Of a stretch of 64,000 nt of DNA, positions 10,109-61,373 are shown piece after piece. The position numbers and the translations under genes are program-made. Origin of the DNA: a virus (lineage: Duplodnaviria > Heunggongvirae > Uroviricota > Caudoviricetes); IMG/VR virus record IMGVR_UViG_3300036770_002544, positions 10,654 through 74,653 of that record, one strand, 5' to 3'. Below the pieces are notes generated by a model, which did no database searches, had not been told where the DNA came from, and saw nothing but the letters and a program-made list of their open reading frames with translations. The first letter of the stretch is position 1. Every line of letters starts with the position of its first letter.

Positions 10109-10113
10109 ATTTT

Positions 10114-20814: not shown

Positions 20815-21432
20815 ATGCATGTTCTAGTCACAGGAGCATCCAGTGGAGTTGGTCTTGCTTGTGCAAAATTGCTAGAGCAACAAGGACACGCTGTGACCAC
20901 GTGGTCCAGTGCAGACTGTGACTTTGATTATCCGGATAGAATCTTTGATCATGATCTATCCGGATATGACATGATTATAAACTGTGCAGGGCATGGTCAA
21001 GGGCATAATCATAATTTTTTTACCAACACCTGGCAAAATCAACTTAGCCAGGTCATGGTTAACTACGTATCAAACATATTCCTGTATAAACATTATGTAA
21101 ATTCTGTGAGCACAGGAAGATATGTTTGGGTAGGATCTAGACTCACTGCATGCCCTAACAGCAAGCCTTGGCAGGCTGTGTACACCACTACTAAATCTGC
21201 TAGCGCAATAACAATTGAATCGGCTAATCAAGATCAATCACATGTGTCTACGCTGGAGGTTATGTTAGGGCTTACTAGATCTAATTTTAGATACAGAAGT
21301 CAATTGGGTTTCACTGATCAACAAGAAATTGAACAAATGTGGAATTCCCAAGGAGCAATCAGTTCAGATCAAGCAGCCAGTCGAATCATTGAGTCTGCAT
21401 TCAGTGATTGCAAAAAAATATTAATAGAATAA
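20815..21432 (+). CDS. short-chain dehydrogenase/reductase (SDR)-like
   Basis: N-terminal TGASSGVG NAD(P)-binding motif. Confidence 0.6.
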   Translation: MHVLVTGASSGVGLACAKLLEQQGHAVTTWSSADCDFDYPDRIFDHDLSGYDMIINCAGHGQGHNHNFFTNTWQNQLSQVMVNYVSNIFLYKHYVNSVSTGRYVWVGSRLTACPNSKPWQAVYTTTKSASAITIESANQDQSHVSTLEVMLGLTRSNFRYRSQLGFTDQQEIEQMWNSQGAISSDQAASRIIESAFSDCKKILIE

Positions 21433-44370: not shown

Positions 44371-45849
44371 TTAGCTACACACCTTAACACCGTATTGCTG
44401 TTCAAATCGATCAGCGTCTGCTCTATCGTTGACCATGGGCTCGCCACGTATGTTTAAACTAGTGTTGAGCAACATAGGGCAGTCGGTCATTACATACCAT
44501 TTTTCAAGCAGTTGTCTAATTCCTGATCCATCTTTCGGCACTGTCTGGACACGACTAGTACCGTCAGCGTGAACGATAGCAGGAAATAAGTCAGGAAGCC
44601 TGCAACGAGCGACGACTTGCATATACCTACTGTCGTTCCAGCCACGAGGCATATCAAAGTAAGTATCAGCCAGTTCCTCCAAAATAACGGGCGCAAAAGG
44701 TCTAAATTTTTGTCTACGTTTGATTTCATTTACTCGATCCTTGATTTCTGGTCCTCTTGGGTCTGCAAGAAGGCTTCTGTGTCCAAGGGCCCGTGGCCCC
44801 CACTCAGCTCTACCACTAGCAACGCCAACAATCCGATCAGTGACAAGCACATCAAGTATATTGTTAACTGGATAAGGACCAGGAATATTATGACCGAGGT
44901 AAGCACTGGTCCAGTTGAGGCGCTGCCCATAAGCCAAAGCAGCGGCTCCGAGACTACTGCCAGCATCACTAGGACAAGGCATAATCCAAATATTTTCAAA
45001 GCATTCTCCCAATCTACGATTTGCGCTGCAATTCAATGCTACACCGCCCATGTAGACTAAATTATCGCTCCAACCAAATGCACGAGCACGGCGCATTACA
45101 TTCATTATTAAATCTTCTGCAAGATCTTGTGCACCAGCAGCAATATCCATGTCGCCAACATAGCTCAAGTACTTTTGGCTTAGGCCCATGTGCAGATTTT
45201 CTTTGAATGTAATCTCCCACGGATCAGCTACCAAGTCCTGCCGCATGAGATCGCCAAACCCACGTTCACCGTAGGCCGCCATGCCCATCAAAATATATTC
45301 TTCGTCTAGTACGCGGAGGCCAACGCGGCTAGTCGCTGCTGAATAAAAGAGTCCGATACTATGTGGGTAGCCGCGACTCCACAATTTTTTATAATGCGCT
45401 TGATCATGTTGATCATATTCTGCTCCCCAGATTGTAATTGTGTCCCATTCACCTATTGCATCAATAACCACAACTGTAGCGCGATTGTAAGGACTGGTTT
45501 GAAATCCCGCTGCTGCATGACACAAGTGATGGTTGTGTGTACTGATAGGTACGCCTCGATATCTGTTGCCAGTTTCGCTGCGTATGATTTGTTTGGCGGT
45601 TAACTGATCCCAGTCAACACCTTGCCCGGCCCAGAGTTGTCGTGCTTGGCGTGCCCAGGGACGCTCGTAATACGCAATATGTCCGATGCTGTATTCGTCT
45701 ACGTCATCTAGCAATGCATCGCAGAGATTTTTATCGTGCTTGTTTTTACTGTAGCGTTCACTGTGGCTGGCAAATTTTATATCTCCAGAATCACTTACCA
45801 CAGCAACTGCAGCATCATGAAACCCTGAGCTGATTCCTAAATAGTTCAT
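44371..45849 (-). CDS. NodU/CmcH-family carbamoyltransferase
   Basis: N-terminal YLGISSGFHDAAVAVV and the HHLCHAA motif. Confidence 0.7.
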   Translation of the reverse strand: MNYLGISSGFHDAAVAVVSDSGDIKFASHSERYSKNKHDKNLCDALLDDVDEYSIGHIAYYERPWARQARQLWAGQGVDWDQLTAKQIIRSETGNRYRGVPISTHNHHLCHAAAGFQTSPYNRATVVVIDAIGEWDTITIWGAEYDQHDQAHYKKLWSRGYPHSIGLFYSAATSRVGLRVLDEEYILMGMAAYGERGFGDLMRQDLVADPWEITFKENLHMGLSQKYLSYVGDMDIAAGAQDLAEDLIMNVMRRARAFGWSDNLVYMGGVALNCSANRRLGECFENIWIMPCPSDAGSSLGAAALAYGQRLNWTSAYLGHNIPGPYPVNNILDVLVTDRIVGVASGRAEWGPRALGHRSLLADPRGPEIKDRVNEIKRRQKFRPFAPVILEELADTYFDMPRGWNDSRYMQVVARCRLPDLFPAIVHADGTSRVQTVPKDGSGIRQLLEKWYVMTDCPMLLNTSLNIRGEPMVNDRADADRFEQQYGVKVCS

Positions 45850-45948
45850 TTATAGATAAAAGGATCTCTTTTGCGTAGTTCTTTTAACTTTTTACGATAT
45901 CGAATTTCCAAGGTGATCCGTGCCCATAAAGTTTTGATCCAGTTCATA

Positions 45949-46155
45949 TTATATCCTTCTGAATTTTGGAGTAGCGTCTGCACCGGCTTCGTATTCCAAG
46001 CCTGTTAATGCATCAGCTAGGTCTTGTAGTGATTTTTGATCCAGTCTGTGTCTAATCACTTCTGCTGTGCCACTGCTGTACACAAAATAAAACAAATCTT
46101 GTGGGTTTTGACTCAACTGAGTTTTAAATATTTCTTGGACTTGATCTAGTGTCAT
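45949..46155 (-). CDS. hypothetical small protein
   Basis: ORF coupled to the upstream gene. Confidence 0.35.
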   Translation of the reverse strand: MTLDQVQEIFKTQLSQNPQDLFYFVYSSGTAEVIRHRLDQKSLQDLADALTGLEYEAGADATPKFRRI

Positions 46156-47195
46156 GTTAATATCCTTGTTTGTTGTTCTTGGTAGTTGTTGTCGCTCCAG
46201 CGGTATTCATATGTTGCTGCTGCTTGAGAAGTTTTAATTGAGTACACGTCAGTAAAATTACTTAGCTGTCCCCAAATGCTGTTATAATCAGTTGTGCCAA
46301 AGCTGCGAATCAGATCTACTTGTCCCACTTGTGGGTGACCAATAGTTAAACTTTTATCTTCGGGGTCAAACCCGTTATTGGTTAACCATTCTTTGAATTC
46401 TGCTAACTGTTTGATCTGCCAGTGGTAAGCCCCTGGATCCTTGGCCCATTCGATGTCAAAATCTCCTGCAGCCAACGTCTGGCCATGTAGTGTAGTAGTA
46501 GTAAGTTCGTTTATTCTACTGTCGCGCCCTTCGTCATTGAACACTTCCCAATGATGCTTGCCTACTGCTTTATTAACACCCAAATAAACACCGCCTAGTT
46601 TGCGATTGATTGTTTCAATACCAAATAATTCAAAGTCCTGCTCATCTAATTTAAAGCGTGGCGCTTGTAGCCAGCACATGAGCTGACTAGGGCGTTGCCA
46701 TTCGGGAGCAGTGTGTAATTTACGAACGCTGAGAATAAGACTTTCGTATTCGTGACACAGCAAGTTTAATTGTCTAATATGCCAGCGAGTATTTGCATCT
46801 GCTTTTAGATAATAAGGGCTAATGTTTTGTGCTGTGCCTTGTAAATCTTCAAAGTAACGATGCAAGTGATTTGTACGGTCGTGATTTAAACGCCATTCGT
46901 CCTCGACTGTATTTTCAACAGTAAAATGATCATTGATTTGATACCCTACATCACTGGCGTTAATTGCAGCGATGCTAGCATTAATTTGTTTGCAAACAAA
47001 GTCTGGGGTTCTATCACCGGTTGCAAACCCTAAAAAACAATAATTCTTTTCTAAATGATAATTTTGTTCTATTAGATTGTTTAATGCTGCTAACCATTTT
47101 CTGCTAAGGCTGTTATCTTCTACATTAATAAACACTGGCAAAATGTTGCCATGTTTATTCCTCAAAGTCATTGTAATACAATCAAGCAATGCCAC
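46152..47195 (-). CDS. hypothetical protein
   Basis: ORF. Confidence 0.45.
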   Translation of the reverse strand: MALLDCITMTLRNKHGNILPVFINVEDNSLSRKWLAALNNLIEQNYHLEKNYCFLGFATGDRTPDFVCKQINASIAAINASDVGYQINDHFTVENTVEDEWRLNHDRTNHLHRYFEDLQGTAQNISPYYLKADANTRWHIRQLNLLCHEYESLILSVRKLHTAPEWQRPSQLMCWLQAPRFKLDEQDFELFGIETINRKLGGVYLGVNKAVGKHHWEVFNDEGRDSRINELTTTTLHGQTLAAGDFDIEWAKDPGAYHWQIKQLAEFKEWLTNNGFDPEDKSLTIGHPQVGQVDLIRSFGTTDYNSIWGQLSNFTDVYSIKTSQAAATYEYRWSDNNYQEQQTRILT

Positions 47196-48474
47196 GCCAC
47201 CATGCTCCTATTTCTGGTCTACTATTTAATATAGTTTCCATGCTAGTAATAGATTGTCGAATACTTTCTAACTTCAACGCACGTTGTTTGCCTTTAACAA
47301 GCCCAGCACGATATTCGTCAGGCCATTGTTCTTCAAATGTAGGACGATTCTTTAACTGAGTCAATATTCCACGCATTTCGCCGCTGGTACAGTCTACCAG
47401 CAGTTCGTCCACCCAGGGATCTAATAGATGTCTTGGTAGTGCTAGTGGGCTCATTACAATGTCGGGTGTAAAACTAAAGATTACTTTTGCCAACAATTCT
47501 ACACCATACTGCTGTGCCAGTTGTTGTATATTGTTAACTTCAAACATGCCGGGTAAGGTCAGTGTAAAATCTAACCGCATTTGCCTACGATTCTTTTGGT
47601 GCTTTAGTCCTGCTTCAAAGTTTCGACAAAACTGATTGTAGTCCAGTCCGGTTCGTATGTATTCGCCAATAGCTCCGGTTCCATCAAGACTGGCACATAT
47701 TTGCCAATCACGTATGTGATCAAGTATATCACTGTACAGATTAATACCGCGATAATCCACGCGGCTGAGGTTAGTATTATATCTAGCGTAAACACGAGGT
47801 CCATCTCCTAATTCTACAATGCGCTGCATATAGCGCCAGTGCTGTTCATACATTAAAGGTTCGCCGCCAACCCAATAGACCTCTTCGACAGCATGATTTT
47901 CAACGGCGGTAGAGAACTCGGCTTCAACTTGACTATCTTGGAACTGTGTGATTGCATCACGACTATCTTTTCGCATCCAATTATTCTTTGGGTTAGCCCA
48001 GTTAACCATGTTATATTGCTTTTCCTCACTCTCCCATGACGATGAAAGCATATCTCCGCAAGTTCTGCATTTGAAATTGCATAAATTGGAAAACCTATAA
48101 TCCCACGAAACAGGTGCCATAGTTGTCGAACCATCGGGCAGCGTTTTATTGTAAACTTCGGCAAGTTTGTGCCCGAATAAATGATCGAAGTAGGTTCTAT
48201 AGACACTAGTGTTAAGGAGTCGGTCATTGCATACCTCGCATTCCGGTAATGTTTCTCCGGCCATCATACGACGGCGCACTGATTTCATATGCTCACTATT
48301 CCAGTGCTGTTCCAGCGTTAAAGGAATATATTTTCCTGTGCCCGTTGCTGTGTCAATGTATTGTTCAAAATTTTGTGCAGGCTCACGGCTAGCACAGCAC
48401 ATCCTACGCTCAGTTTGCGGGCTCAGATAAGTGTGTGTCCAGGGTGCTAGGCACAGGGTATTGGGTTTATCCAT
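47182..48474 (-). CDS. radical SAM protein, Cys-rich N-terminal family, paralog 1
   Basis: CNFKCRTC. N-terminal LCLAPWTHTYLSPQTERRMCC. Confidence 0.65.
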   Translation of the reverse strand: MDKPNTLCLAPWTHTYLSPQTERRMCCASREPAQNFEQYIDTATGTGKYIPLTLEQHWNSEHMKSVRRRMMAGETLPECEVCNDRLLNTSVYRTYFDHLFGHKLAEVYNKTLPDGSTTMAPVSWDYRFSNLCNFKCRTCGDMLSSSWESEEKQYNMVNWANPKNNWMRKDSRDAITQFQDSQVEAEFSTAVENHAVEEVYWVGGEPLMYEQHWRYMQRIVELGDGPRVYARYNTNLSRVDYRGINLYSDILDHIRDWQICASLDGTGAIGEYIRTGLDYNQFCRNFEAGLKHQKNRRQMRLDFTLTLPGMFEVNNIQQLAQQYGVELLAKVIFSFTPDIVMSPLALPRHLLDPWVDELLVDCTSGEMRGILTQLKNRPTFEEQWPDEYRAGLVKGKQRALKLESIRQSITSMETILNSRPEIGAWWRGIA

Positions 48475-49477
48475 TTATGAAATCAAACATGGGTTGTTGT
48501 ATTGTGCTCAATGCTAACTGTTTAGTTATGCTAGCATCAAAGAACCTGTGTTGATTATAACGTAGTTTTTCTAGTACTTTAGGTTGATCTACGCTGCGTC
48601 GATCAAACTCCAAGAGTACATTGACAATGTATTGCACACGTTGCTTCCAGTCTGTAATATCGTCATATTGCTCATCAAACAATTCAGGGAAAGTTTCAAA
48701 TCCTTGGCTTCGTAGATATGCCAAGCTACCTGGAGTGCTAACTAGCAGCAAAGGGTGTTGAGCTGCTAAAGGTTTGTAGCTTTTTTCACACAAGAACAAA
48801 TGATTTTGACGGGTTAGACTGTAACCCGAAGTGGCTTCACTTATATAAGTTTCCACTGCTAGTGTACATGCTGTGTTGTGCATCCAGTCGGGGTTGATAT
48901 AACGTTGCTGCAGCACAGGATCATGATAATCATTGGGCAAATTGATGCCGCGAGCTTGATAACTGTGTATGCTATCTAACAAATGGTTGCCTAGACTTTC
49001 GTACACATAGTCACGTTCAGGACGTTGCTTGCCCAGACTCATAAAGAATTTTTTCTTAGAGTCCGATGGGGTCCACACAACTTCGTGCACTCCTGTATTG
49101 CGCATCTGCACTTGATCCATTATCCAATACCAATGAGGTGTGGCAATGATTTGCACGCCAGGCAAGGGATTGGGCTCATGTCCTGAAATAATAAAACAGC
49201 CTTGTCCCGGGTGCTGCATGAAACTATACAATACATGATGCATTTCGTAGTGTATGTAATGTTCATTTTTGGCGTCAAAAATTACTCGATAACCTTGTGC
49301 CAAATGTGTTGCAATACGATCATGCCCAGGGCCATACATGTTATAATAGAACACAGTGTCTTGAGGATACTTAACAGCAGGATTAAAGAATTCAAATTTA
49401 GTGCCTTCGGGAACAATCATTCTCATTGTTTCCTTAGGTGCCCCAAAAGGATCGTAAACAAATACTAGCTTAGCCAT
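48467..49477 (-). CDS. TEKxFKP-family protein, paralog 3
   Basis: CEKSYKPLAAQHPLLLVSTPGSLAYLRSQGFETFPELFDEQYD. Confidence 0.5.
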   Translation of the reverse strand: MAKLVFVYDPFGAPKETMRMIVPEGTKFEFFNPAVKYPQDTVFYYNMYGPGHDRIATHLAQGYRVIFDAKNEHYIHYEMHHVLYSFMQHPGQGCFIISGHEPNPLPGVQIIATPHWYWIMDQVQMRNTGVHEVVWTPSDSKKKFFMSLGKQRPERDYVYESLGNHLLDSIHSYQARGINLPNDYHDPVLQQRYINPDWMHNTACTLAVETYISEATSGYSLTRQNHLFLCEKSYKPLAAQHPLLLVSTPGSLAYLRSQGFETFPELFDEQYDDITDWKQRVQYIVNVLLEFDRRSVDQPKVLEKLRYNQHRFFDASITKQLALSTIQQPMFDFING

Positions 49478-50690
49478 TCTTTTTGTAATCTAGTAATTGA
49501 GCCATTTCGGGTGCTACTTGTGCAAAATCCTGATTTCTTTTTTGATCTAGATCTTGTATTTTCATTCTAGTCATGAACCCGTCTGTGCTAGCGCCACCGT
49601 TCATGAAATCAATTATTCGATCAAATTCTTGTTTGAACTGCAGAGGTATTGAAGCTGTTTGCAGGTACGCAGTAACAGCTTGTTTAGCAGTATCTGGTAA
49701 GGTAGCAATGGAGAAATACCAAGCGTCATGCATGATATTCCAATATACAAAATCAAATGATTCCTGATTTTGATCTATCCAGTGTGCCAATTGATCTATA
49801 TAACGCACGTTGAATATGTTTACTGTGGCGCATATTTGCAACTGAATGTTCGTGTGTATTTCTTTAAGGTCTCTAAAACGATCTAGATTTTCACACACTT
49901 CGGTCCACACTGCATTACTACGCTGATATTCAAAGCGCTCACCTAAATCATCAATACTAAATGCAATTTCTACAGTTTTAAAATGCTTCCAGATCTGCTC
50001 TGCAGATTCTGGATATTGGGTGCCATTAGTGTTGTAGTGTATTTCTACCTGGTGTGCGATACCACGATCTACAATACCTTGCAGCATTTGAAAATGCTCT
50101 TGAATCATAAAAGGCTCACCGCCGGTGAATTCGATATAACGTATGTCGCCAAGGACCGCATCAATTTCATTCCAGAATTGAGTATTTTCTCTGGGCCAGG
50201 AGCCTGCCCGCAGCATAGTGTATGCGTGTGACTTTTTTTGTTCTGCCCGGTCCATGAACTGTAGTTCTTCAGTAGCAAATTGACTTGAACTCCATGAGCC
50301 GCATATGCGGCATTTCAAATTGCAGATGTTGCCCAGCTTCAGGTCAAGAAACTGCAAAGGCTTGGCGTCTGTGGTCCAGTCTGTGTCTGTCACAGTGTGC
50401 TTGAGTCTGTTAAGAGTGTGCATGCGCTTTGATGTACGGCCAGCACGTTCTTCATTCCAGCACTTGCGACAGGTCTGCGGTTTTTGCCCAGCTAAAAACT
50501 GTTCTCTCAGTTGTTGCATGGAGTTGCTGTTTTGAATTTCTACAAATGTAGCAGTATGCAAACTAAACTTGTTACCACTGTTATCTACTAACTCGTCATC
50601 GGCTAGGCAGCAGGGACGCACAGTACCAATAGGACTAGCTTCTAAGCTAATCCAAGGTAGTACGCAAAATCGATCGTGTGGTAAGTTCAT
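49470..50690 (-). CDS. radical SAM protein, Cys-rich N-terminal family, paralog 2
   Basis: CNLKCRIC. FCVLPWISLEASPIGTVRPCC. Confidence 0.65.
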   Translation of the reverse strand: MNLPHDRFCVLPWISLEASPIGTVRPCCLADDELVDNSGNKFSLHTATFVEIQNSNSMQQLREQFLAGQKPQTCRKCWNEERAGRTSKRMHTLNRLKHTVTDTDWTTDAKPLQFLDLKLGNICNLKCRICGSWSSSQFATEELQFMDRAEQKKSHAYTMLRAGSWPRENTQFWNEIDAVLGDIRYIEFTGGEPFMIQEHFQMLQGIVDRGIAHQVEIHYNTNGTQYPESAEQIWKHFKTVEIAFSIDDLGERFEYQRSNAVWTEVCENLDRFRDLKEIHTNIQLQICATVNIFNVRYIDQLAHWIDQNQESFDFVYWNIMHDAWYFSIATLPDTAKQAVTAYLQTASIPLQFKQEFDRIIDFMNGGASTDGFMTRMKIQDLDQKRNQDFAQVAPEMAQLLDYKKNG

Positions 50691-51949
50691 AGTAAAGCTC
50701 GTAATTCAGGAATAATATCCAAGCAAGATTCGTTTCTAATGCTGTCTAGTTCATTGGTCTTTCGCCAGAATGTATCTATTAGATGAGTGTTGTCTGTGGC
50801 GTGCATAAAAGCAATTGCTGATTCAAATCCTACTGTAGCGCGGTTAAGTCGATCTAACGGTTTTAACCACGCTAGGTGAGATTGATACAGTTCGGTTAAT
50901 TCTTGCTTGTACTCAGCTGGCGCAATGTCGATTCTGTAGTGTGCAGGATCTTGCAGGATATTTACGTTTAAATCCTGCGGCTTAATCAACCCTTTTTCAA
51001 CCCACACACGATGGAACTTAGGCAAATGTCGTGCATTCAGGATGCTCAATGTAGGGCTAATGTAAAAATCTACCTCTGGACAAATAGACAGCATATCTTT
51101 ACGATTCTTTTCTACTTGTCCCCATGCGGTGCCTTTGCGTATGTATTCTGCACGGGTGCCCATGTCATCTAAACTAGCGCCTACAGCAACACTCTTAAAC
51201 TGCTTCCAGTATTCAAATACACTCTTACCTTTTAAATCAGTGTGTGTAAAGTTAGTATTGTATATTAAACGGACATCTGTACGCCCTCTGCGCACTAACT
51301 CGTCAAGAATGCGATAATGTTCTTCCATTAGCAATGGTTCGCCGCCTGCAAAGTAAATTTGTTCTACATAGTCTAAGTGAGGTTCAAGTTGTTCCCACAT
51401 GTCTAGTTCCGTACGGCCTGCATAATTCAATACAGTGTTGTGTTCTTTCCAATTGCCGCCAGCAAGTTTGGCTTGATCTTGATACCATTGACTGCTAAAG
51501 ATGTGCCCGCAACTACGGCAACGCAAATTACACAAGTTACTAAAGCGAATATCCCAGTAAGTTAACTCAAAAGGATTGCTATCTAACTTTTTAATTTGAT
51601 GCCCGTGATGCTTGTTGGCACTACGACGACCACTAAAGAATCCCGACTCTTCTTGTTCGTAGCATCGAGTACATGCCGGATGCTTTGTTTCATTGAGCAT
51701 ATCTTGGCGTAATTTTTCTAGAGGTTCGCTACGCCAAATTTCTTCTAACGTTTGTGTTCTACAATTACCGATTACACCAGGCTTCATTTCGGCGTGGCAG
51801 CAAGGGTATGCTTCGCCAGTAGGATAAGCATGCAGGTGTATCCAAGGATAGATACAAAATGTTTTTGATTCTTTTAATAAGAATTCTTCACGTTCTGTAA
51901 GTTCTACAGGACGTACAAGGTCAGCAGAATTATATTTGTATTGACTCAT
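50687..51949 (-). CDS. radical SAM protein, Cys-rich N-terminal family, paralog 3
   Basis: CNLRCRSC. FCIYPWIHLHAYPTGEAYPCC. Confidence 0.65.
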   Translation of the reverse strand: MSQYKYNSADLVRPVELTEREEFLLKESKTFCIYPWIHLHAYPTGEAYPCCHAEMKPGVIGNCRTQTLEEIWRSEPLEKLRQDMLNETKHPACTRCYEQEESGFFSGRRSANKHHGHQIKKLDSNPFELTYWDIRFSNLCNLRCRSCGHIFSSQWYQDQAKLAGGNWKEHNTVLNYAGRTELDMWEQLEPHLDYVEQIYFAGGEPLLMEEHYRILDELVRRGRTDVRLIYNTNFTHTDLKGKSVFEYWKQFKSVAVGASLDDMGTRAEYIRKGTAWGQVEKNRKDMLSICPEVDFYISPTLSILNARHLPKFHRVWVEKGLIKPQDLNVNILQDPAHYRIDIAPAEYKQELTELYQSHLAWLKPLDRLNRATVGFESAIAFMHATDNTHLIDTFWRKTNELDSIRNESCLDIIPELRALL

Positions 51950-53313: not shown

Positions 53314-54421
53314 TGAGGTATTGTTCTAAACTAACAGGAAGTTGGGCACGTTGTTCACGGTTGTACTCTACAAGACGTTGCTGGTTGTATTTACAAATGT
53401 CACGACTAGCATCCCAGAATTTAGCAGCACCGGTCCGGCTAATGTCGCGCACTGTATCTATTATACGCTCTGCACGGGCTTGCGGGCAATCAATTTGATC
53501 GTAGTGTTCATCGATCAATGTATCAAACGTTTTAAATCCTGCGTTACGCAAGTCACGCAAATAACCTGCATTGGCCGCTACCACAAATGGGTGTGCCATC
53601 AAAACGGGCTTCCAAATCTTTTCTGTTCTAAATGTATGAGGATAGTCGTAAATGGTTTCTGTTACCAGACTGAACCAGGTGTCTGTATAGCAGCGTGGAT
53701 TTACTATGGCGTCGCCCCAGGTGTTGTTGAACAGTTTGTGTTTGACAAATCCGCCATCAGTATAAAGATCAGGTGTTAATCTTTCTCTGGCACGTTCTAT
53801 TTCGTATTCCTGGGGCAGCAGTCTAATAGGCTCTGTTTTAAATGTACTCAACTGGGATGTAAATGCCATTTCTACATGACTACCCAAATTGGTCCATAAT
53901 GCATGTGTCAGCAAACCTTGATCTTTAAGACCATCAATTAGATATTTGCGATGCGGACGTAGCCGACCGTTTAAAAAAAGAAATTCGTACGGACGGTGTG
54001 TTTTATAGTCCAAGGCGCCTTGTAGTTGTGCAGCTTTATTTTCGTCGTACTCAACAATATTACTAAAGTAACAGTCTGTTTTGCAGTAGTTCCAGCCCGG
54101 TTCTAAATCGCCTGACGTTAGTAGGCCAATACGCCCGTCGCGCACATGGTCAGTAATTCGCAGTCTCGTGAGCTGTAGTAACACAGTTTCAGATCCTTCA
54201 GCAGGATTTGAAAAAATGATACGTCCGGGGTATCGATTGGCAAGATCAATAATTCGTGTCCAATTTTCTTTTAAGACCACACGACCTACAATGTACGTAG
54301 CCTCAGGGTCAAAAGAATCAGGCCATTGCCAAAATGATGCGTCTGCATAAGGTTTAAGCAGATCCCAGGTTTCGGCCCATTCATCAACAATCAGTTTATG
54401 AATTCCTAGCATGGTACTCAC
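53300..54421 (-). CDS. TEKxFKP-family protein, paralog 4
   Basis: TEKIWKPVLMAHPFVVAANAGYLRDLRNAGFKTFDTLIDEHYD. Confidence 0.5.
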   Translation of the reverse strand: MSTMLGIHKLIVDEWAETWDLLKPYADASFWQWPDSFDPEATYIVGRVVLKENWTRIIDLANRYPGRIIFSNPAEGSETVLLQLTRLRITDHVRDGRIGLLTSGDLEPGWNYCKTDCYFSNIVEYDENKAAQLQGALDYKTHRPYEFLFLNGRLRPHRKYLIDGLKDQGLLTHALWTNLGSHVEMAFTSQLSTFKTEPIRLLPQEYEIERARERLTPDLYTDGGFVKHKLFNNTWGDAIVNPRCYTDTWFSLVTETIYDYPHTFRTEKIWKPVLMAHPFVVAANAGYLRDLRNAGFKTFDTLIDEHYDQIDCPQARAERIIDTVRDISRTGAAKFWDASRDICKYNQQRLVEYNREQRAQLPVSLEQYLNDRS

Positions 54422-55787
54422 ATTCTGTCCACCAGGACTTCATTTCAGGGAATGTTCTTAAAAAATCAGTTCCGCGGCGACGATCGTGTTCACTAAAGAA
54501 CCGATAGAAATCAGCCTTGGCTGCTGAATGGTCTTGCTGCTGACCTGCTCGCATCCAGGCGATATCACGCTCTAGACGCTGCACTTCGTAGTCCTTGAAT
54601 CCATGCAAGGGGTTAGATTCAGTGACCAGATTGGCCAACATGTAGTCTCGCACTGACTCAAGCTTTTGGGCATAGCTCTCGGGCATGATCTGCAAGCTTT
54701 GCCAAGCAGGTTCCCGCAGTACCGGAGTATCAAACCACACACGCTGATATGTATGAGAATATAATTTTCGCAAGTGCAAGATCCATTCCATATAGGTTTG
54801 CAGTCCAGTGATACTGAGATTGTTCATTGTAATGATAAACGTTAAACTATTGCGATGCGGAGCTTCGGTAAGATAACGATTTACGTTGGTTGCAACACGA
54901 TGCGAATCCATACCGTGTCTGATGTATTCTGCTTGTAATCCATTGCCCGAGTCCAGGCTCACATACTGCATGAAATGTTCGATCTGAGTGTTGCACAGAC
55001 GCTTGACATAGTCTAGATACTTTTCAAACAGTGCATCATCAACTGAAAAATTCGATGTCACATTTAAATGCAAATCAGATTTGGGCAATGCTAACACATA
55101 GTCAAACACACGATAGGTGTTTTTATCCATAAGTGGTTCGCCACCAGTCATGCGGAAATGCTTCAGCTGAGGATACAGCGTGGGCCACCACTGCCAAAAT
55201 GCTTCAACATAGGGATTGTGTTCCCTAGCGGGAATAACACGCCTAGCCCCTGTAAAGTGTTCAGGAGCATTATGTGGTGAGGCAGTAGGGAAAGCGCCAA
55301 AACGATTAGCTTCGTCTGCCCAGCTAGAGCTAAACTGGGGAGAGCAATAACTGCACTTGAGGTTACAAGCATTGTTAAAATTAACCTCAACATAGCTAGG
55401 GATGACGTCATCTTCTGTTCCTGTACTGTTCTTTATACGTTCAAAGTCCACCGCTGCCCAGGGTTCACCTGATCTATAGTGTCTGTCACTCAGCTTATTT
55501 TCAGCTTCCATGTTCCAGCAGTAGCTGCATTCCGCAGGTTTTTGCTGCTGCAACATCAAGACACGTTGCGCTTTCTTGTGTTCAGTATTGTGCAGGGCGC
55601 CAGGATCGGCAGCAATGGCAGCAGGATCAATTGGATGCAGTGGCGGGTGATAGCACGAGTTGTTCATGCCTGTCTGCAGGTGCAAACTGACCTGTTTCCA
55701 TTTGGCAAGACAAAGAGCAGGACCTAGGTCCTGCTTCATTTGTTCAGCAGTTCCCATAAATGTTGATTTGTCTGTTGATTGGGTCAT
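54396..55787 (-). CDS. radical SAM protein, Cys-rich N-terminal family, paralog 5
   Basis: CNLKCSYC. LCLAKWKQVSLHLQTGMNNSCYHPP. Confidence 0.65.
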   Translation of the reverse strand: MTQSTDKSTFMGTAEQMKQDLGPALCLAKWKQVSLHLQTGMNNSCYHPPLHPIDPAAIAADPGALHNTEHKKAQRVLMLQQQKPAECSYCWNMEAENKLSDRHYRSGEPWAAVDFERIKNSTGTEDDVIPSYVEVNFNNACNLKCSYCSPQFSSSWADEANRFGAFPTASPHNAPEHFTGARRVIPAREHNPYVEAFWQWWPTLYPQLKHFRMTGGEPLMDKNTYRVFDYVLALPKSDLHLNVTSNFSVDDALFEKYLDYVKRLCNTQIEHFMQYVSLDSGNGLQAEYIRHGMDSHRVATNVNRYLTEAPHRNSLTFIITMNNLSITGLQTYMEWILHLRKLYSHTYQRVWFDTPVLREPAWQSLQIMPESYAQKLESVRDYMLANLVTESNPLHGFKDYEVQRLERDIAWMRAGQQQDHSAAKADFYRFFSEHDRRRGTDFLRTFPEMKSWWTECEYHARNS

Positions 55788-56383
55788 AGATATTGTTTCA
55801 AAAACTCAAGTACTTCAGCATTGCCCTGTGCGCTCATGTGGTTCGTGCTGCCTGGGTGAGCTTTCCAAACGTTGTGTAGACTTTTAACCTTAGGTAACTG
55901 ATAATCAAAAAATGTTATATGCACAGCATCGGGTAGTTTCCCCACAGCATAGCTAACCAGCAAGCTATGCGTGAACTCAGCTTGTTCTATGTCAAATACA
56001 TTTTCAAACCACCAAACCACATCAGCAGCATACTGATCAGGCAGTCTAGCATGCATGTCTGCATACAGCAAGTCGCAATTGCGATGCGTAGCACTGGTTC
56101 TGTAATAAGGGTTTGTCTCTACATAGATTCTATTGGGACTGGTGTGAACAAAGATTACCTTGCTATACTTGCTAGTATCAATTGAGTTGAGCTTTTTTAT
56201 CAGTCTATATTCACTGCTGCCACACATGGAAACGTTGTCTACAACATAGTTATCAATACACATAGTCCAGCTTGGTGTATCGGTGCTGGCACTAAAACTA
56301 TCACCAATGATCAGTAGCTTCTTTACCATGCTTGTGAAAGTGTATCTAATTTGCGAATAAAACTGGTGCTGAGAACAGAGCAA
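55784..56383 (-). CDS. SGNH/GDSL-like hydrolase
   Basis: N-terminal LLIIGDSFSAS. Confidence 0.45.
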   Translation of the reverse strand: MLCSQHQFYSQIRYTFTSMVKKLLIIGDSFSASTDTPSWTMCIDNYVVDNVSMCGSSEYRLIKKLNSIDTSKYSKVIFVHTSPNRIYVETNPYYRTSATHRNCDLLYADMHARLPDQYAADVVWWFENVFDIEQAEFTHSLLVSYAVGKLPDAVHITFFDYQLPKVKSLHNVWKAHPGSTNHMSAQGNAEVLEFLKQYL

Positions 56384-57150
56384 CAGTATTGCTTTTCAAG
56401 TCTGGGACGAATCCAGTAGTCTACCCAGCTCATGTGTACGTTGCTGGGTGGGTGCATTTTGTTTATATCATTGTATATGGGCAGGTTGTTGTTCATGGCA
56501 TATTGAATCAGTGACACAAACTCGAACCATTCCGAACTCAACACAGGCTTTATCTTTGCACTCAAAGGCTGACTTAAAAAGTCATGTCGCTGTAGTTCGG
56601 CACCTTGTGTTAGGTATGCGTTTATTTCCTGCTCCTGGTACTGCCATATTTCCATGTCAAATAACGGGAAAAGATCTATGCCACGACTCTCACACAGCTT
56701 TTCCAGGGCGCTAAACACAAGCATATTGTTGACACAAGCAATGTCTGGGTCGAAGAAGTTGTTGTAGTAATGTTGTTTTATCAAGGGCCAGTGCGATCCT
56801 GTGCTCCAAAATCCAAACTGACCAGGCACAGCAGGTTGTCCTGCAATGTCTATGGGACGGTGCTTTTCGTTAATATAGTCAGCAGTTTGACTAGGATTTA
56901 GATACATGTCAAACTTGTCAATGCCAGTGAACATAGGCATGCACAAGGTGTTTTTTGAATCAGCATTTAGTATAGCATTGATACAACTAACCGCAATATA
57001 ATAGTTACTAGTACCGCGAGCACTGAGATTGATCACTCGGCGAGGCCGTAGTATTTCGCATACAATATCTGCCCATGTAAACCAAGGGCTTGCAGTTATG
57101 CTAGCACCGCTAATGATCAGTGTATCAATTTGTTTCATAACAGTTGACAA
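56323..57150 (-). CDS. SGNH-like hydrolase (divergent)
   Basis: N-terminal LIISGASITASPW. Confidence 0.35.
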   Translation of the reverse strand: MSTVMKQIDTLIISGASITASPWFTWADIVCEILRPRRVINLSARGTSNYYIAVSCINAILNADSKNTLCMPMFTGIDKFDMYLNPSQTADYINEKHRPIDIAGQPAVPGQFGFWSTGSHWPLIKQHYYNNFFDPDIACVNNMLVFSALEKLCESRGIDLFPLFDMEIWQYQEQEINAYLTQGAELQRHDFLSQPLSAKIKPVLSSEWFEFVSLIQYAMNNNLPIYNDINKMHPPSNVHMSWVDYWIRPRLEKQYCCSVLSTSFIRKLDTLSQAW

Positions 57151-58279
57151 AGTGTTTTAGTTCTTCCATTACACCAAGATTGTGTGCGCGAAACTGTTGT
57201 TCAAGTTTGCCGCTCCAGGCCAGTTCAAAATTGTGCTCTACTGAGGGCTGGGCCATTCTAGCTAAGTCCGGTACAGGCGTTTCTAGTATCCAGTTAATTT
57301 GGCTTAGTATTACTTCCAAGCGTTGGTTGTCGTTAAAGGCACCATCATAGTCACGGGCCCATACATAGTCAAATACAAAGCCCCAGGATTCTAGCTGTTT
57401 TTTGAGTCCAGCTTGTCCAGTAAACAAAATAGCGTTGCCCCCAAACAAGGGCTTCCAAGTTTTTTCTGTTATGTAAGGGGTAGGTAATTTGCCAAACTCC
57501 GGAGTTTGACTCAAGGACTGTGTTTCGTTGATGGAGTTTATAACTGTGTCAAAATAAGCAGGATGATTAAAACAAGAACCACTAAGTGGATTGTTATCAA
57601 ACTGTTCTGCATTAACACTATTGTTTTTTAAAAACTCTTTGTATTCCAGCAGTTTGTCAGCATGATAAAGCCCGTGTGGTTCAAACACAAATCCATCTTG
57701 ATTTCTAATATCAAAGCCTCGATTCCAAGTATACAATGCATGGGCACTTTGCATACTGTGTAGTTTGGCTGTTACGTAAAACTTAAATTCATTAAGTCTT
57801 GAGCTTAGGCTGCTTAACTTGTATTTGCGTTTTGATAAATCAATCTGTGTTGGAGGATTGTTTTTAATGTGTATGGCCCGAAACCAGGTGGCATGATGTA
57901 TTATTTGAAATACTTTTACTCTTTCAAGGTTGGCAAATCCGTTTGGTTGCGCATCTGTTATAACAACAAACTGCGCCTGCGGATTACGGTTGTATAAGTC
58001 TAAAAACCATAAATCACCAAATGGTTCAAAGAACCATGACAGAATGTACAGTTCTTTTCCGTTGGGCACAGTAGGACAACATGGTTGTTGGCTAGCAATG
58101 TTCATCAAGCAGTAAGTATTTTTGTTGTGCTTTTTGAGCCAGGAGAAGTCTGCGTCAACAAACTCAAAGTTTCCGTTTTCTACAGTTTGATTTAGTTTAT
58201 AAAACCAATTGTGCATTACCAGCCTTCCTGCTGACGAATTACATCCATTTCTCTGACCATAACACCTCGATTGCGCCAA
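57125..58279 (-). CDS. TEKxFKP-family protein, paralog 5
   Basis: TEKTWKPLFGGNAILFTGQAGLKKQLESWGFVFDYVWARDYD. Confidence 0.5.
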   Translation of the reverse strand: MAQSRCYGQRNGCNSSAGRLVMHNWFYKLNQTVENGNFEFVDADFSWLKKHNKNTYCLMNIASQQPCCPTVPNGKELYILSWFFEPFGDLWFLDLYNRNPQAQFVVITDAQPNGFANLERVKVFQIIHHATWFRAIHIKNNPPTQIDLSKRKYKLSSLSSRLNEFKFYVTAKLHSMQSAHALYTWNRGFDIRNQDGFVFEPHGLYHADKLLEYKEFLKNNSVNAEQFDNNPLSGSCFNHPAYFDTVINSINETQSLSQTPEFGKLPTPYITEKTWKPLFGGNAILFTGQAGLKKQLESWGFVFDYVWARDYDGAFNDNQRLEVILSQINWILETPVPDLARMAQPSVEHNFELAWSGKLEQQFRAHNLGVMEELKHFVNCYETN

Positions 58280-59139
58280 TCACCACGATAGTGATGCTTG
58301 AAGAATGCCGACTGCTCTGCTTCAAGTATAGCCATAGGCAAATCTAATTGTGTTCCAAGATCAGGACCAATTTGATTAGCCAGTATACGAGGATTGGAAT
58401 CTTTTACCGTGTCCCACAACTTAGCGAGAGCATCGAAGTCTTGAACTTGTGTGTGATCCCAATTTGTAAGCATAGTCATATAAGTGCCTTGGCGGGCACC
58501 AGCAATTGCCCATTCACCGTGTTCAGCATCAACACCTACATTGTGCCAAATTGTTAGATGGTCTAGGTTGCGTAGGACTTGATTTTTGAATTCGTCAATA
58601 GTAGGTTTGCGTCCGCGCTGCAAACACATTTTAACACCCTCACGAAATCCCGCACGCCACGCTTGGAAAGGCGAACCGTTGGGATACGTCGTCGAAAAAC
58701 AATCGTGCATCGCCCAATAAAGGGGATCGAAACAGAACTCCACCTGCGTTTCGTGGGATCCATTTGAATGTTCATGAGTTTGCATATTATGTACAAACTC
58801 CTTCGTCCATGAAGATAAACCACCATTGCCATACATCAGTCCATTAATCTTGTTACGAGCACGCCAGCGGAACACAGCGTTCTCATATTCTTCATTAGGA
58901 AAAACAAGCGTTTGATTAAAAAACGTTGGATCAGGCAAGTTGTCACCGTCGATGAGAATAAATCTGGCTGTATCTGAGGCCTGGGCTGCCGCTTTGTGAG
59001 CAGCATCGCTGCCCTTAACGCCGTCCACCCGTTTGGCCCAAGGCACCATGTTCTTAATTTTAACCCAAAATTCTTCACGTTGTGGCTCATCGTATGTAAG
59101 GTAAATGCAATCTAAATCTGCAATGTCAATTTGTTTCAT
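58216..59139 (-). CDS. hypothetical protein
   Basis: ORF. Confidence 0.45.
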
Positions 59140-59497
59140 AAGTTATTTTGTTCCAAAGTTGATGCGGTTGGTCTGCGCTGACTACTACAGCAACATCTCT
59201 AGGATCACACATGGTCCCTTGTGTATCACTAATTTCTAGTCTGGCAGTGGTCTGCCAGGTTAATTCTACCAATTGCCCGTTGCGAACACGCACGTTGCTG
59301 GCATTACGATGATACTGTTCTTGCGTAATCTCAATGTATGTACCTGGCAAATCTTCCATGCTGTAGAATAAAGGAATACCCTGTGCATCGTGATACAGCC
59401 TATAAAAGACCGGGACCACAGCAGGAACAGCATTTAAAATGTCCCAAAACTCTTGCTCAGTCATGTTCTTTGTGCCCTGTAATGTATAGCACCCCAT
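59126..59497 (-). CDS. hypothetical protein
   Basis: ORF. Confidence 0.4.
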
Positions 59498-60228
59498 TGC
59501 GCTACGGTATTAATTCGATAAGGATCGCTTTCAAACGTTAGTTCATGCATCCAATCTTCGGTCGCTGTACCAGCATGATGTCGCTTCATATGTACAATCT
59601 GTGGGTAGGTTGCAAACGGCAGCGTTACACGATCCCTACCCATGATTTCTGCTGCCATTGCGTATACTAAATCTGTACTAGCACGTTCTTCGGGAAACTT
59701 TAATAAAATCTTGTAGGATTCCCAGTTTGTAAAGATTTCCTTGACCAAATTAAAAAATTCTTGTGCAGTTTCGCTCAATCGCCAGTAGGTAATTGCATTG
59801 TACACATCGGGCAAGTTGTTGGCATCAAAACATTTTCTATAGTTACGTGCAGTACTTGTATCTCCGCGCCAGGTTCTGCATCCAGTACTAATCACAACGT
59901 CTCGATGTCTAAACAAATCCCACCAATGATCAATTGGTGTAGCAATCAACATGTCTGCTTCAAGTTTAATTGTTTCTCTAAATGGTGTGTTCTTAAACAC
60001 TAACCAATCGTTTGCCCAGGGATTGTCAGTGTCAATGTTTTCAACTATATGTGTATAGGCAAACAGTGCGGGCTCAGCTGCATATTTCTCATTGGTCAGC
60101 AAACAAATACGTGCATTGGGATTATGTGCCAAAAGCGTTGTAGCCAATGCACGGGCACAGTCAACATAGTCTGTCTTGCCTATGTTCCAGGCAGGAATAA
60201 TATAACCTTGTTCTTCAACGGGACGCAA
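59461..60228 (-). CDS. putative glycosyltransferase-like protein
   Basis: ORF; weak nucleotide-sugar transferase-like N-terminus. Confidence 0.35.
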
Positions 60229-61018
60229 TTATCTTCTCCAACTGGCTTTTGCCCATGGCATGAAAGTCTATGCCTGAGGTGCCTACTTGACGAGCAACAT
60301 TGTTAGAATCAATATATTCCAATGCAAAGTAATCATCCCGTAATTGAGAAACCGCAGCAGTAGGCAATACAGATGCCAAACTCCAAGGAATTTTATCAAC
60401 ATGATTAGTATGTCCGCTAACAATACCTAATGCAATGCTCAATGCAAAATCATTTCTATATGTTGATCGGTCAATGTGATACAAGTCTCGATAGTGCTGC
60501 CAATTTTCACGCACCATTGTCATTGCATCGAAAATATATTGGACGACGTTTGTACGTTTAAAACACATAACTGTGGCCCACCACATGGGCATTTGATGAC
60601 GTCCAAAAGTATTAAGACCGTCGAGTGGTAGGCCAGTTGTTACATCCCAGGCATTTTTATGGCAAAGAAAATCTGTGTCAATATCCCAGAGTTGATTTAA
60701 AGCATCGCTGCAAACCACATAGTCAGCATCTAGTACCAGTGTATGGTCCCAGGGTGTTAGATTAAACGCATCAACCCGTCCGGCATTGTGCCAAGACACA
60801 GTGTTTTGATAATCTTCAAACCAACGTGTTCCACCGGTGGCCGCAGATGCCATAATGACTTTCTCAAAACCCTGAGTTCGGCTTGTATCCTTGCAATCTG
60901 TGACGACTGCAACTGGAATGTCGAGGTGGCGACGAATACGTTGAGCACTCCAGTGAGCCATAGCAACGTAGTCGGTTTGTTCATTGTTAAAAGCAAAGAT
61001 AAGTGCGCCGCGAGTCAT
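60215..61018 (-). CDS. putative glycosyltransferase (DxD)
   Basis: LVLDADYVV DxD motif. Confidence 0.45.
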   Translation of the reverse strand: MTRGALIFAFNNEQTDYVAMAHWSAQRIRRHLDIPVAVVTDCKDTSRTQGFEKVIMASAATGGTRWFEDYQNTVSWHNAGRVDAFNLTPWDHTLVLDADYVVCSDALNQLWDIDTDFLCHKNAWDVTTGLPLDGLNTFGRHQMPMWWATVMCFKRTNVVQYIFDAMTMVRENWQHYRDLYHIDRSTYRNDFALSIALGIVSGHTNHVDKIPWSLASVLPTAAVSQLRDDYFALEYIDSNNVARQVGTSGIDFHAMGKSQLEKIIASR

Positions 61019-61320
61019 CGTTTTTTATTGTTTGCTTCGTGTTCTATTAACCAAGCGTTCATGATTTCTTGAAAGCGTTCACCTACCTGGTGTCCTAGTT
61101 CAATGGTATTAATTTTGACAGGGTTTCCATACAAGTCTAGTATTACTGCTTCTTCGGTTGGTATTGCTTGCAGTAGTACCATCAAGTGCTGGTCAGCACG
61201 AAACATTCCGCCGTTGTATGCAAACAACATTCGCGCTTCGTACTTTTCTTTAAGAATTCGTTTTGCAGTTTCGTGATCAAAACGGGCTCGTGCGTGAGCC
61301 ACAAGGGCATTGGTATCCAT
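61015..61320 (-). CDS. hypothetical protein
   Basis: ORF. Confidence 0.4.
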   Translation of the reverse strand: MDTNALVAHARARFDHETAKRILKEKYEARMLFAYNGGMFRADQHLMVLLQAIPTEEAVILDLYGNPVKINTIELGHQVGERFQEIMNAWLIEHEANNKKR

Positions 61321-61352: not shown

Positions 61353-61373
61353 AAAGGGGCTGCTGCCCCTTTT
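61353..61373 (-). terminator. hairpin terminator (minus-strand transcription, after the tail-fibre genes)
   Basis: aaagggg-ctgctg-cccctttt. Confidence 0.5.

Follow-up and report, generated by a model that had tools for sequence, protein, structure and literature searches.

The 64,000-nt window analysed here (positions 10,654-74,653 of the virus record IMGVR_UViG_3300036770_002544; all coordinates count from the window start) carries, beside virion fibre genes, a dense island of enzymes in which five paralogous radical S-adenosylmethionine (rSAM) proteins, R1 to R5, stand among glycosyltransferase (GT) and sugar-pathway genes. Open reading frame (ORF) listing and translation bear out the unbroken minus-strand gene train described in the initial annotation, which occupies 61018 to 44371, neighbouring genes overlapping stop to start by 4-64 nt, and extend it by one gene at its start, giving the order u101, B267, B255, u123, A307, T3, S275, S199, R5, T2, R4, R3, R2, T1, R1, U347, p68, p33 and a carbamoyltransferase gene (CBT). 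A seeming gap of ~300 nt (45850-46151) is filled by two coupled small ORFs, p68 and p33. Facing the train on the plus strand are genes for a short-chain dehydrogenase/reductase (SDR), a DegT aminotransferase, T4, T5 and an amidinotransferase, with the minus-strand gene X864 sitting among them (Table 1). GC content is even across the region and therefore gives no sign of recent import, and a promoter and terminator scan of the region yielded a total count no better than chance.

Across the full length of the model, all five rSAM proteins match NCBIfam NF033640 (N_Twi_rSAM, twitch domain-containing) at 282-400 bits, the curated cutoff being 170 bits, and they match one another by BLASTP with E-values of 7e-7 to 9e-62 at 20-30% identity; judged by sequence, R1-R5 are old paralogs. 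The CxxxCxxC cluster, placed 120-140 residues in by the initial annotation, is found at residues ~123-147, and GGEP, an N, an S, E-Y-x-R and four N-terminal Cys are likewise invariant in the alignment. Across 332 distinct phage and bacterial relatives, CxxxCxxC, GGE, N235, S262 and R274 are 100% conserved and the four N-terminal Cys 97-100%. Intact SAM-binding motifs, in R1-R5 as in these relatives, make it probable that all five are active enzymes with one auxiliary cluster. Pfam SPASM can be identified at the N-terminus of three of the five (R1-R3; residues 8-97), in two of these three above the gathering score, which supports the earlier proposal that the conserved N-terminal Cys module is an auxiliary-cluster (twitch/SPASM) domain. 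Pfam Radical_SAM scores above its own gathering score in R2 and R5 and below it in R1, R3 and R4. Among solved structures, the core matches viperin best (E 3e-7), followed by 8vpo (an unnamed rSAM protein) and BlsE, within a range of 3e-7 to 9e-4, a likeness at superfamily level only. Weak NCBIfam matches include MoaA as well as maturases of the PapB, StsB, SkfB and MftC types. Also supported is the view that such a density of paralogous rSAM enzymes is exceptional in a sugar-pathway setting.

T1-T5 are indeed five paralogs of one family (TEK), with pairwise BLASTP E-values of 3e-4 to 6e-15 and an invariant E-K-x2-K-P motif. They had been described as an unrecognised enzyme interleaved with the rSAMs. 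Two TEK genes do lie between rSAM genes; the third copy in the train does not, and there is no one-to-one alternation. Searches of the TEK proteins against Pfam, NCBIfam and PDB sequences, and of T2 (the only member tried) against PHROGs, returned no match. An AlphaFold2 (AF2) model of T1 built from 43 sequences (predicted local distance difference test, pLDDT, 90.5) has two Rossmann-like domains in GT-B topology, GT4-type and other GT-B enzymes are among its structural matches, and Foldseek concurs; on this model the TEK proteins are GT-B-fold glycosyltransferases, and the label of unrecognised enzyme no longer applies. A TEK profile run against 1.84 billion representatives retrieved 12,779 clusters (50% identity) at E<=1e-3. 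None of 130 diverse members matches a Pfam GT family, the proteins fall outside Pfam GT10, and the family profile has no match among PDB sequences. TEK is thus a very large GT-B family missed by every library searched (Pfam, NCBIfam and PHROG, for the members tested). A tblastn search of cultured phages with T5 and T2 found no match.

The two DxD glycosyltransferases first annotated, B255 and B267, are putatively GT8/glycogenin-like by profile: as single sequences neither has a Pfam or NCBIfam match, and their family profile (20 homologs) matches glycogenin-1 and -2 (E 3e-5 to 3e-4) over N-terminal positions 1-106, with D99 invariant among the homologs. A third GT-A-like gene, A307, had been overlooked, as had p33. 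The N-terminal half of the A307 predicted structure (pLDDT 56), the part used for fold comparison, hints at a GT-A-like protein, possibly with an SpsA-like Rossmann fold and a DxD motif after strand 4. X864, which matches A307 by BLASTP (E 8e-12 over X864 residues 628-842), is made of five repeats of ~60-70 residues (motif W-x-PDP-x-DPPY-x-Y-x-FG-x-QWW...PGATE-x-KYV) followed by a C-terminal A307-homologous domain without the DxD motif; it has no Pfam or PHROG match, and its conservation in relatives is 38-64%. Profile searches with U347 and A307 found nothing meaningful among PDB sequences, and U347 has no Pfam, PHROG or NCBIfam match either. The island holds eight or nine GT-like proteins (five GT-B, two GT8-like, one or two A307-type GT-A-like), all of them acidic (isoelectric point 5.4-6.7, net negative charge).

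The carbamoyltransferase, amidinotransferase, DegT and epimerase/dehydratase assignments of the initial annotation hold in Pfam, phmmer and NCBIfam searches. CBT reaches 121.5 bits (7e-35) for Carbam_trans_N and 160.5 bits (3.5e-47) for Carbam_trans_C (cutoffs 24 and 27) and 133 bits at the NodU equivalog level (cutoff 1000); at the level of family profiles it is confirmed as a NodU/CmcH-type carbamoyltransferase that is not a NodU equivalog. The amidinotransferase has no Pfam match at the thresholds used, and its phmmer matches are to five members of the AGAT/StrB1/HsvA/SxtG family at E 1.6e-15 to 1.2e-10, among them 2jdx (AGAT; 1.6e-15) and 1bwd (1.7e-13). Its C-terminal GGISCCTQDIRRRGGLETYL aligns with an AGAT segment and sets the Cys of GGISCC against the Cys of GGFHCW, the catalytic residue in AGAT; the family also has a catalytic His, in the middle segment. 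The DegT aminotransferase and the SDR have PseC (3.5e-41) and dTDP-glucose 4,6-dehydratase, respectively, as best NCBIfam matches, each under its cutoff. S199 and S275, read initially as SGNH hydrolases, were aligned with five similar proteins from distant clusters, and all seven sequences retain the residues G, S, N and H; the two have no Pfam match, and their profile matches TesA/GDSL entries in the PDB weakly (E 0.003-0.04 over the first 45 positions), so that an SGNH-like nature is weakly supported.

Table 1. Features of the island and of the adjoining fibre genes (coordinates in the window)
Feature	Coordinates	Strand	Evidence or remark
Epi: SDR, nucleoside diphosphate (NDP)-sugar 4,6-dehydratase/epimerase-like	36508..37476	+	Pfam Epimerase 4.5e-46, GDP_Man_Dehyd 1e-34
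DegT/PseC-type sugar aminotransferase	37421..38524	+	Pfam DegT_DnrJ_EryC1 6e-58
X864: 864 aa, repeats and A307-like C-terminal domain	38493..41087	-	BLASTP to A307
T4: TEK-family GT-B glycosyltransferase (predicted)	41086..42177	+	paralog of modelled T1
T5: TEK-family GT-B glycosyltransferase (predicted)	42155..43333	+	paralog comparison
Amidinotransferase, AGAT/StrB1/HsvA/SxtG family	43320..44345	+	phmmer
CBT: NodU/CmcH-type carbamoyltransferase	44371..45849	-	Pfam Carbam_trans_C, Carbam_trans_N
p33: basic 33-aa micro-ORF, MNWIKTLWARITLEIRYRKKLKELRKRDPFIYK	45846..45947	-	conservation, codon-position pattern
p68: small, poorly conserved ORF	45949..46155	-	fills remainder of gap; homolog only in L008
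U347: conserved protein, no library match	46152..47195	-	median 64% identity in 25 relatives
R1: radical SAM (NF033640)	47182..48474	-	NCBIfam 283 bits; Pfam SPASM residues 8-83
T1: TEK-family GT-B glycosyltransferase (predicted), hypervariable slot	48467..49477	-	AF2 model
R2: radical SAM (NF033640)	49470..50690	-	345 bits; Pfam SPASM and Radical_SAM both above gathering score
R3: radical SAM (NF033640)	50687..51949	-	400 bits; Pfam SPASM 1.4e-13, residues 32-97
R4: radical SAM (NF033640)	51946..53313	-	282 bits
T2: TEK-family GT-B glycosyltransferase (predicted), variable slot	53300..54421	-	identity range in relatives (see text)
R5: radical SAM (NF033640), type most widespread outside clade	54396..55787	-	306 bits
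S199: small SGNH-like protein (weakly supported), start codon uncertain, rare accessory	55784..56383	-	alignment, weak PDB profile matches
S275: small SGNH-like protein (weakly supported), rare accessory	56323..57150	-	as for S199
T3: TEK-family GT-B glycosyltransferase (predicted), accessory in A307/R5 variable slot	57125..58279	-	homologs only in L014, L047
A307: putative GT-A / nucleotide-diphospho-sugar-transferase-like, IDGDN motif	58216..59139	-	constant partner of R5-type rSAMs
u123: small conserved protein	59126..59497	-	conserved in related loci
B255: putative GT8/glycogenin-like GT-A glycosyltransferase	59461..60228	-	family profile; PHROG 1903
B267: putative GT8/glycogenin-like GT-A glycosyltransferase, LDADY motif	60215..61018	-	family profile
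u101: small conserved protein, first gene of the train	61015..61320	-	conserved in related loci
Terminator-like hairpin between fibre gene and enzyme train	61353..61372	-	consensus match; such sites at chance level region-wide
F322: fibre-like protein, 30% Ser+Thr, candidate glycan acceptor	61376..62344	-	composition, synteny
F523: virion structural (fibre or baseplate-pin-like) protein	62358..63929	-	C-terminal match to jumbo-phage proteins

Relatives were examined in 80 IMG/VR loci and 70 loci from metagenome-assembled genomes (MAGs), the latter found with a three-sequence alignment whose peptide patterns bias which relatives come up. Metagenomes contain a very large number of homologs at 77-100% identity, on contigs of up to 361 kb, and one island protein is represented by at least 8000 clusters (90% identity) in public metagenomes. 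The backbone A307-R5-(T2)-R4-R3-R2-(T1)-R1-U347-p33-CBT, facing amidinotransferase-T5-T4-X864, recurs across loci, and the island always lies just downstream of virion fibre genes. In 25 clade members, median identity to the window is 71-80% for R1-R5, 75% for A307 and 87% for the amidinotransferase, the best-conserved gene of the locus, compared with 46% (range 25-72%) for the T1 slot and 64% (31-78%) for the T2 slot. In relatives, the R2/R1 slot is either empty or occupied by a different TEK gene or by a TEK gene together with an additional epimerase gene; the A307/R5 slot is variable too, the T3-S275-S199 block is almost unique to the window, and S199 is missing from all 150 related loci. 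In three marine relatives (L088-L090) all five rSAMs are present, and the available stretch of contig shows no TEK gene between them. Because relatives keep the rSAMs but vary the GT-B slots, the rSAM/GT-A/fibre block is the core of the island, and the GT-B genes are accessories in swappable slots. A one-to-one pairing of rSAMs with glycosyltransferases was considered and rejected, as the content of the slots varies and a slot may be vacant.

Distant phages (L075, L077, L088-L090, L109, L132) also carry the module F523-F322-u101-B267-B255-A307-R5, as does, in part, Ralstonia phage RsoM2USA (MG752970); L077, L109, L132 and RsoM2USA retain only F523/F322-u101-B267-B255-A307-R5. In these distant phages, RsoM2USA included, F322 lies directly upstream of B267/B255/A307/R5. 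Over its C-terminal 130 residues, F523 shares 46-49% identity with proteins that carry the annotation virion structural protein or baseplate wedge/tail pin in PA5oct-like, Atu_ph07 and Phosso jumbo phages. Among 50,697 records, no cultured phage other than RsoM2USA has the A307/R5 module, and in RsoM2USA ORF348-355 comprise A307, an R5-type rSAM, two GT8-like genes and an F322-like gene in the same order as in the window. Proteins of its ORF361, ORF359 and ORF356, just upstream of the module, were found in virions by mass spectrometry (PMC8504454). Unlike the window with its five, RsoM2USA has one N_Twi rSAM across the 25 kb that were inspected (the record contains another match), and these 25 kb hold no TEK GT-B, carbamoyltransferase or amidinotransferase gene; its module genes are annotated hypothetical. 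Megablast of the whole island against the same 50,697 phage records gave no match. The lineage is one of abundant uncultured jumbo phages with genomes of 260-360 kb, distantly related to RsoM2USA. A paper on 'moraphages' reports four core glycosyltransferases in a freshwater jumbo lineage but makes no mention of rSAMs, so that lineage could not be connected with the present one.

A few observations on related contigs may be added here. In the cultured Vibrio phage K566 (OZ196521, 255 kb; L157, 13971-20713), four N_Twi-like rSAM genes are clustered with hypothetical genes between them, and TEK, A307 or GT8-like partners are absent. The 335-kb contig Ga0492751_0000002 (JGI; L001) carries an adenosine 5'-phosphosulfate (APS) kinase gene at 19883-20689, between the carbamoyltransferase and amidinotransferase genes, which suggests that its version of the product is sulfated. 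Jumbo-phage contigs bearing the island and fibre genes have also been placed in bacterial MAGs that GTDB uses to represent species (L087 and L115 in a Haliscomenobacter MAG; L088-L090, L109, L132-L135 and L141 in other MAGs), a placement that is probably a binning artefact and not host evidence. The MAG hits at 41-80% identity were accordingly rejected as a guide to the host, the phage contigs having been binned into Haliscomenobacter, TMED and other MAGs.

Taken together, we tentatively favour, at somewhat less than even confidence, a reading in which the ~36.5-61.3 kb island builds a glycan of rare sugars in the cytoplasm and attaches it to a soluble acceptor, with the fibres as the probable target. 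It is favoured because of the enzyme content, the fixed place beside fibre genes and the lack of membrane machinery: no credible membrane segment was seen in any of the 27 proteins checked from 35.5 to 64 kb, and no Pfam family of an initiating phosphoglycosyl transferase, flippase, polymerase or ABC transporter is matched in the island. Fibre-gene synteny and the lack of membrane proteins likewise favour the acceptor being soluble. The dehydratase and aminotransferase would make an NDP-4-amino-4,6-dideoxyhexose, which could be amidinated and O-carbamoylated; R1-R5 would tailor a conserved intermediate, a sugar or nucleotide sugar, in a series of radical steps, plausibly epimerisation, dehydrogenation, deoxygenation or C-C bond formation, as twitch enzymes do in aminoglycoside pathways. 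The glycosyltransferases would then assemble an oligosaccharide on the acceptor, most likely the Ser/Thr-rich F322, or F523, and swapping of GT-B cassettes would make the outer glycan differ between related phages. That viperin and BlsE, with nucleotide and nucleoside-sugar substrates, are the closest solved relatives of the rSAM core also counts for this reading.

Outside phages, glycan settings of bacterial homologs speak for the same reading. A Methylomagnum plasmid has one NF033640 gene among GT39, GT2, GT4, polyprenyl and ABC-transporter genes. Fourteen bacterial MAG loci, mostly from Bdellovibrionota (124 proteins including the rSAMs), hold seven GT2, four GT1/GT4 and three GT7-like genes together with GDP-mannose dehydratase, epimerase and DegT genes. 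In L112 the rSAM lies beside GT2, GT2/GT7C-like and A307-like genes in a chromosomal setting, in L117 it is flanked by flagellin genes, and R5-like genes adjoin A307-like genes both in RsoM2USA and in Bdellovibrionota. Six Bdellovibrionota contigs (L091, L092, L094, L095, L138, L153) carry tandem arrays of 4-8 NF033640 paralogs, flanked in L092 and L094 by the housekeeping genes Obg, Mfd and ATP synthase; no glycosyltransferase was found among the neighbouring ORFs scanned, which were part of the neighbours, and a search for conserved small ORFs beside the bacterial arrays gave none, returning close-relative or tRNA-gene artefacts. Predatory Bdellovibrionota and jumbo phages thus both carry expanded NF033640 rSAM sets.

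The micro-ORF p33, MNWIKTLWARITLEIRYRKKLKELRKRDPFIYK, is translationally coupled to CBT and was found in 37 loci, always near the carbamoyltransferase gene, and in L142 directly after an R5-like rSAM. Its C-terminus is near-invariant (...YRKKLKELRKRDPFIYK), and in codons 17-33 the nucleotide differences at codon positions 1, 2 and 3 are 0.12, 0.026 and 0.355; as differences fall mostly at third positions, p33 is translated and the peptide is under purifying selection. It is highly basic, helix-like and without Cys, and was not detected in RsoM2USA or in most bacterial rSAM loci. Its role may be that of a substrate peptide or of a small subunit.

Several of these points weigh against a virion glycan pathway. 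The conservation of p33 within the train is not accounted for by such a pathway, and the GT-free arrays of Bdellovibrionota are ill-matched to a strictly glycan-linked role of the rSAMs. Characterised SPASM/twitch rSAMs act more often on peptides or proteins than on sugars. Our search of the literature found no publication on NF033640 and no member with an established substrate or product; searches on rSAMs with N-terminal SPASM/twitch domains, jumbo-phage rSAMs, rSAM glycan epimerases and Bdellovibrio rSAMs likewise found nothing relevant. The proposed sugar-pathway steps lean on family matches below threshold, the GT-A-like assignment of A307 on a low-confidence model, and gene order is the only pointer to F322 or F523 as the most likely acceptor.

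The same observations bear on an unlikely alternative in which the rSAMs are maturases of a peptide or protein, either a fibre protein or p33, and CBT and the glycosyltransferases then decorate that product. The logic would be that of mycofactocin, in whose pathway MftC, an rSAM-SPASM enzyme, modifies the peptide MftA before the glycosyltransferase MftF adds sugars; a further parallel is the carbamoylation of the HypE C-terminus by HypF. It agrees with the peptide substrates of most characterised SPASM/twitch rSAMs, with the weak PapB, StsB, SkfB and MftC-type matches, with the GT-free arrays among the neighbours scanned, with the rSAM between flagellin genes, and with p33 itself, a real gene under strong purifying selection with the C-terminus ...RKRDPFIYK, lying beside CBT and, in L142, right after an R5-like rSAM. 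However, p33 lacks Cys, is basic and helix-like, is more conserved than a typical leader-plus-core precursor and goes undetected in RsoM2USA and most bacterial rSAM loci; no conserved small ORF accompanies the bacterial arrays; the small proteins of the train have no Pfam match (no search aimed at an RRE/PqqD-like domain was made); and the best solved-structure matches of the rSAMs are nucleotide-acting enzymes.

The polysaccharide clusters that harbour bacterial rSAM and TEK homologs, such as a Methylocystis locus in which a TEK homolog sits among GT4, epimerase and GDP-fucose synthase genes, bring in remodelling of the host surface (lipopolysaccharide (LPS), capsule or flagellin glycan), for instance as a block to superinfection, with phage sugars fed into the host membrane machinery. 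Phage sugar-gene cassettes of this kind are read as surface-modifying, and the APS kinase of one relative points to sulfation. We nevertheless hold this reading to be quite improbable, given that genes for an initiating phosphoglycosyl transferase, a flippase, a polymerase or an ABC transporter are missing from the island and the 27 proteins are free of membrane segments, that the unit stays fixed beside virion structural genes across very distant phages, and that the genome size and tRNA array point to a lytic life style, in which lasting serotype conversion would have little purpose. An autonomous LPS or O-antigen locus was rejected for its lack of membrane proteins.

Equally improbable in our judgement is DNA hypermodification, in which the GT-B enzymes would add a sugar to a pyrimidine that carries a hydroxymethyl or hydroxyl group, the remaining enzymes would modify that sugar, and the phage DNA would be protected from host nucleases. 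GT-A and GT-B enzymes that glycosylate phage DNA, partnered by epimerases, are on record, in clusters that adjoin a TET-like dioxygenase or a ThyA-like hydroxymethylase (bioRxiv 10.1101/2023.12.21.572611), and a ThyX thymidylate synthase gene adjoins the present locus. ThyX, however, is a flavin-dependent deoxythymidine monophosphate (dTMP) synthase, neither a ThyA-like nor a TET/JBP gene is found in the 64-kb window, and the four 2-oxoglutarate (2OG) oxygenases are of Asp/Asn-hydroxylase, PhyH and TauD types. Support from the window amounts to a generic fold likeness to T4 beta-glucosyltransferase, the conserved neighbours are fibre genes and not replication genes, and the acidity of the GT-like proteins is weak evidence against direct DNA binding.

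The StrB1-type amidinotransferase, TobZ/NodU-type carbamoyltransferase, DegT enzyme, twitch rSAMs and soluble glycosyltransferases together mirror aminoglycoside clusters (BtrN is a twitch rSAM), and with no membrane acceptor machinery the product could be a free small molecule, an aminoglycoside- or nucleoside-like pseudo-oligosaccharide bearing guanidino and carbamoyl groups and directed against the host or competing phages. This appears very improbable: no inositol/cyclitol synthase, exporter or resistance gene was recognised, the tight synteny with fibre genes would be left unexplained, and swapping of glycosyltransferases on a kept core suits variation of a surface antigen better than a bioactive scaffold.

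There is also a bolder reading, which we consider rather unlikely, in which this widespread phage lineage and, independently, Bdellovibrionota use 4-8 rSAMs with N-terminal twitch domains for an uncharacterised multi-step radical transformation, the phage product being either new rare sugars (e.g., higher-carbon, guanidino or carbamoyl) for virion glycosylation or p33 turned into a glycosylated and carbamoylated product by mycofactocin-like logic. If true, either route would be the first for a virus. The enzyme superfamilies are all known, and the rSAM family is already catalogued as NF033640; what appears to be undescribed is the joint presence, beside phage structural genes, of a conserved five-rSAM core, a new GT-B family, an amidinotransferase and a carbamoyltransferase, and new chemistry is a real possibility. 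No description of a conserved five-member rSAM set in a viral glycan island was found in the literature. The analysis brings out two large 'dark' families, the NF033640 radical SAMs and a GT-B family of ~12,800 clusters, and as the lineage is abundant, the product of the island is probably common in nature. Should the glycan decorate the fibres, the swappable GT slots would represent a new route for phage surface variation, with a bearing on host recognition, escape from defence or grazing, and phage engineering.

Elsewhere in the window, an array of 26 tRNA genes spans 2455-10318 (+), where many of the ORFs called are translated tRNA genes. Within it lies an rSAM gene with a MoaA/viperin-like core (4767-5909, +), whose listed start overlaps tRNA-Asn and tRNA-Gly, so that its true start lies downstream, and a B12-binding-type rSAM with weak HpnJ/PhpK-like matches is encoded at 18104-19693 (+). 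Four 2OG-Fe(II) oxygenase genes (8593-9234, -; 10868-11545, -; 12146-12985, +; 25761-26666, -) comprise two Asp/Asn beta-hydroxylase-like paralogs, one PhyH-like and one TauD-like gene, none of the four being TET/JBP-like; their products could hydroxylate proteins or small molecules. Seven successive ORFs of 68-86 residues at 15127-16656 (+), with overlapping or abutting starts and four beginning MVM, may form a tandem small-protein family. A gene for a TctC-family (tripartite tricarboxylate transporter) solute-binding protein (19741-20811, +) is followed by a short-chain dehydrogenase gene (20815-21432), and a MoxR-type AAA+ ATPase (26990-28075, +) with a protein carrying DUF2201 metallopeptidase-like and VWA domains (30350-31621, +) looks like a MoxR-VWA pair.

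No fully characterised polysaccharide cluster with assigned chemistry was found to match the island. The glycosylation systems of mimivirus fibrils, chlorovirus capsids and mycobacteriophage capsids and tails, which act on virion proteins, combine nucleotide-sugar tailoring with soluble glycosyltransferases as the island does; to our knowledge they contain no rSAM, amidinotransferase or TEK-type GT-B, and virion glycosylation, known for those viruses, is here inferred from genes alone. On virus-encoded glycosylation of virion proteins, see Freeman et al. 2023 as cited in PMC12619734. Neither T4 beta-glucosyltransferase (GT63) nor the GT10 alpha-1,3-fucosyltransferases match TEK at the sequence level, and the acidity of TEK would be unexpected for a DNA-binding enzyme. 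The membrane components of bacterial O-antigen or capsule assembly of the Wzx/Wzy or ABC type were not recognised among the proteins between 35.5 and 64 kb.

Aminoglycoside clusters share with the island genes for a sugar aminotransferase, an amidinotransferase and a carbamoyltransferase, and BtrN, BlsE and the MoaA/viperin-like cores combine one auxiliary cluster with the SAM cluster, as R1-R5 probably do; in those enzymes the auxiliary domain is C-terminal, whereas in R1-R5 it is N-terminal. A precedent for glycan loci with several rSAMs is the rfb cluster of Brachyspira hyodysenteriae plasmid pBHWA1, which joins rfbF, rfbC, an epimerase, a GDP-mannose dehydratase and glycosyltransferases to six rSAM genes and one SPASM-domain gene; its rSAMs reach 16-43 bits on a profile of the five window rSAMs, as opposed to 86-271 for the NF033640-type genes of Methylomagnum and RsoM2USA. 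In NF033640 itself, as in R1-R5, an N-terminal twitch/SPASM-like four-Cys domain precedes the CxxxCxxC core. NF033640 is a catalogue entry without assigned function, from which the window differs by five ancient paralogs kept as a fixed phage set.

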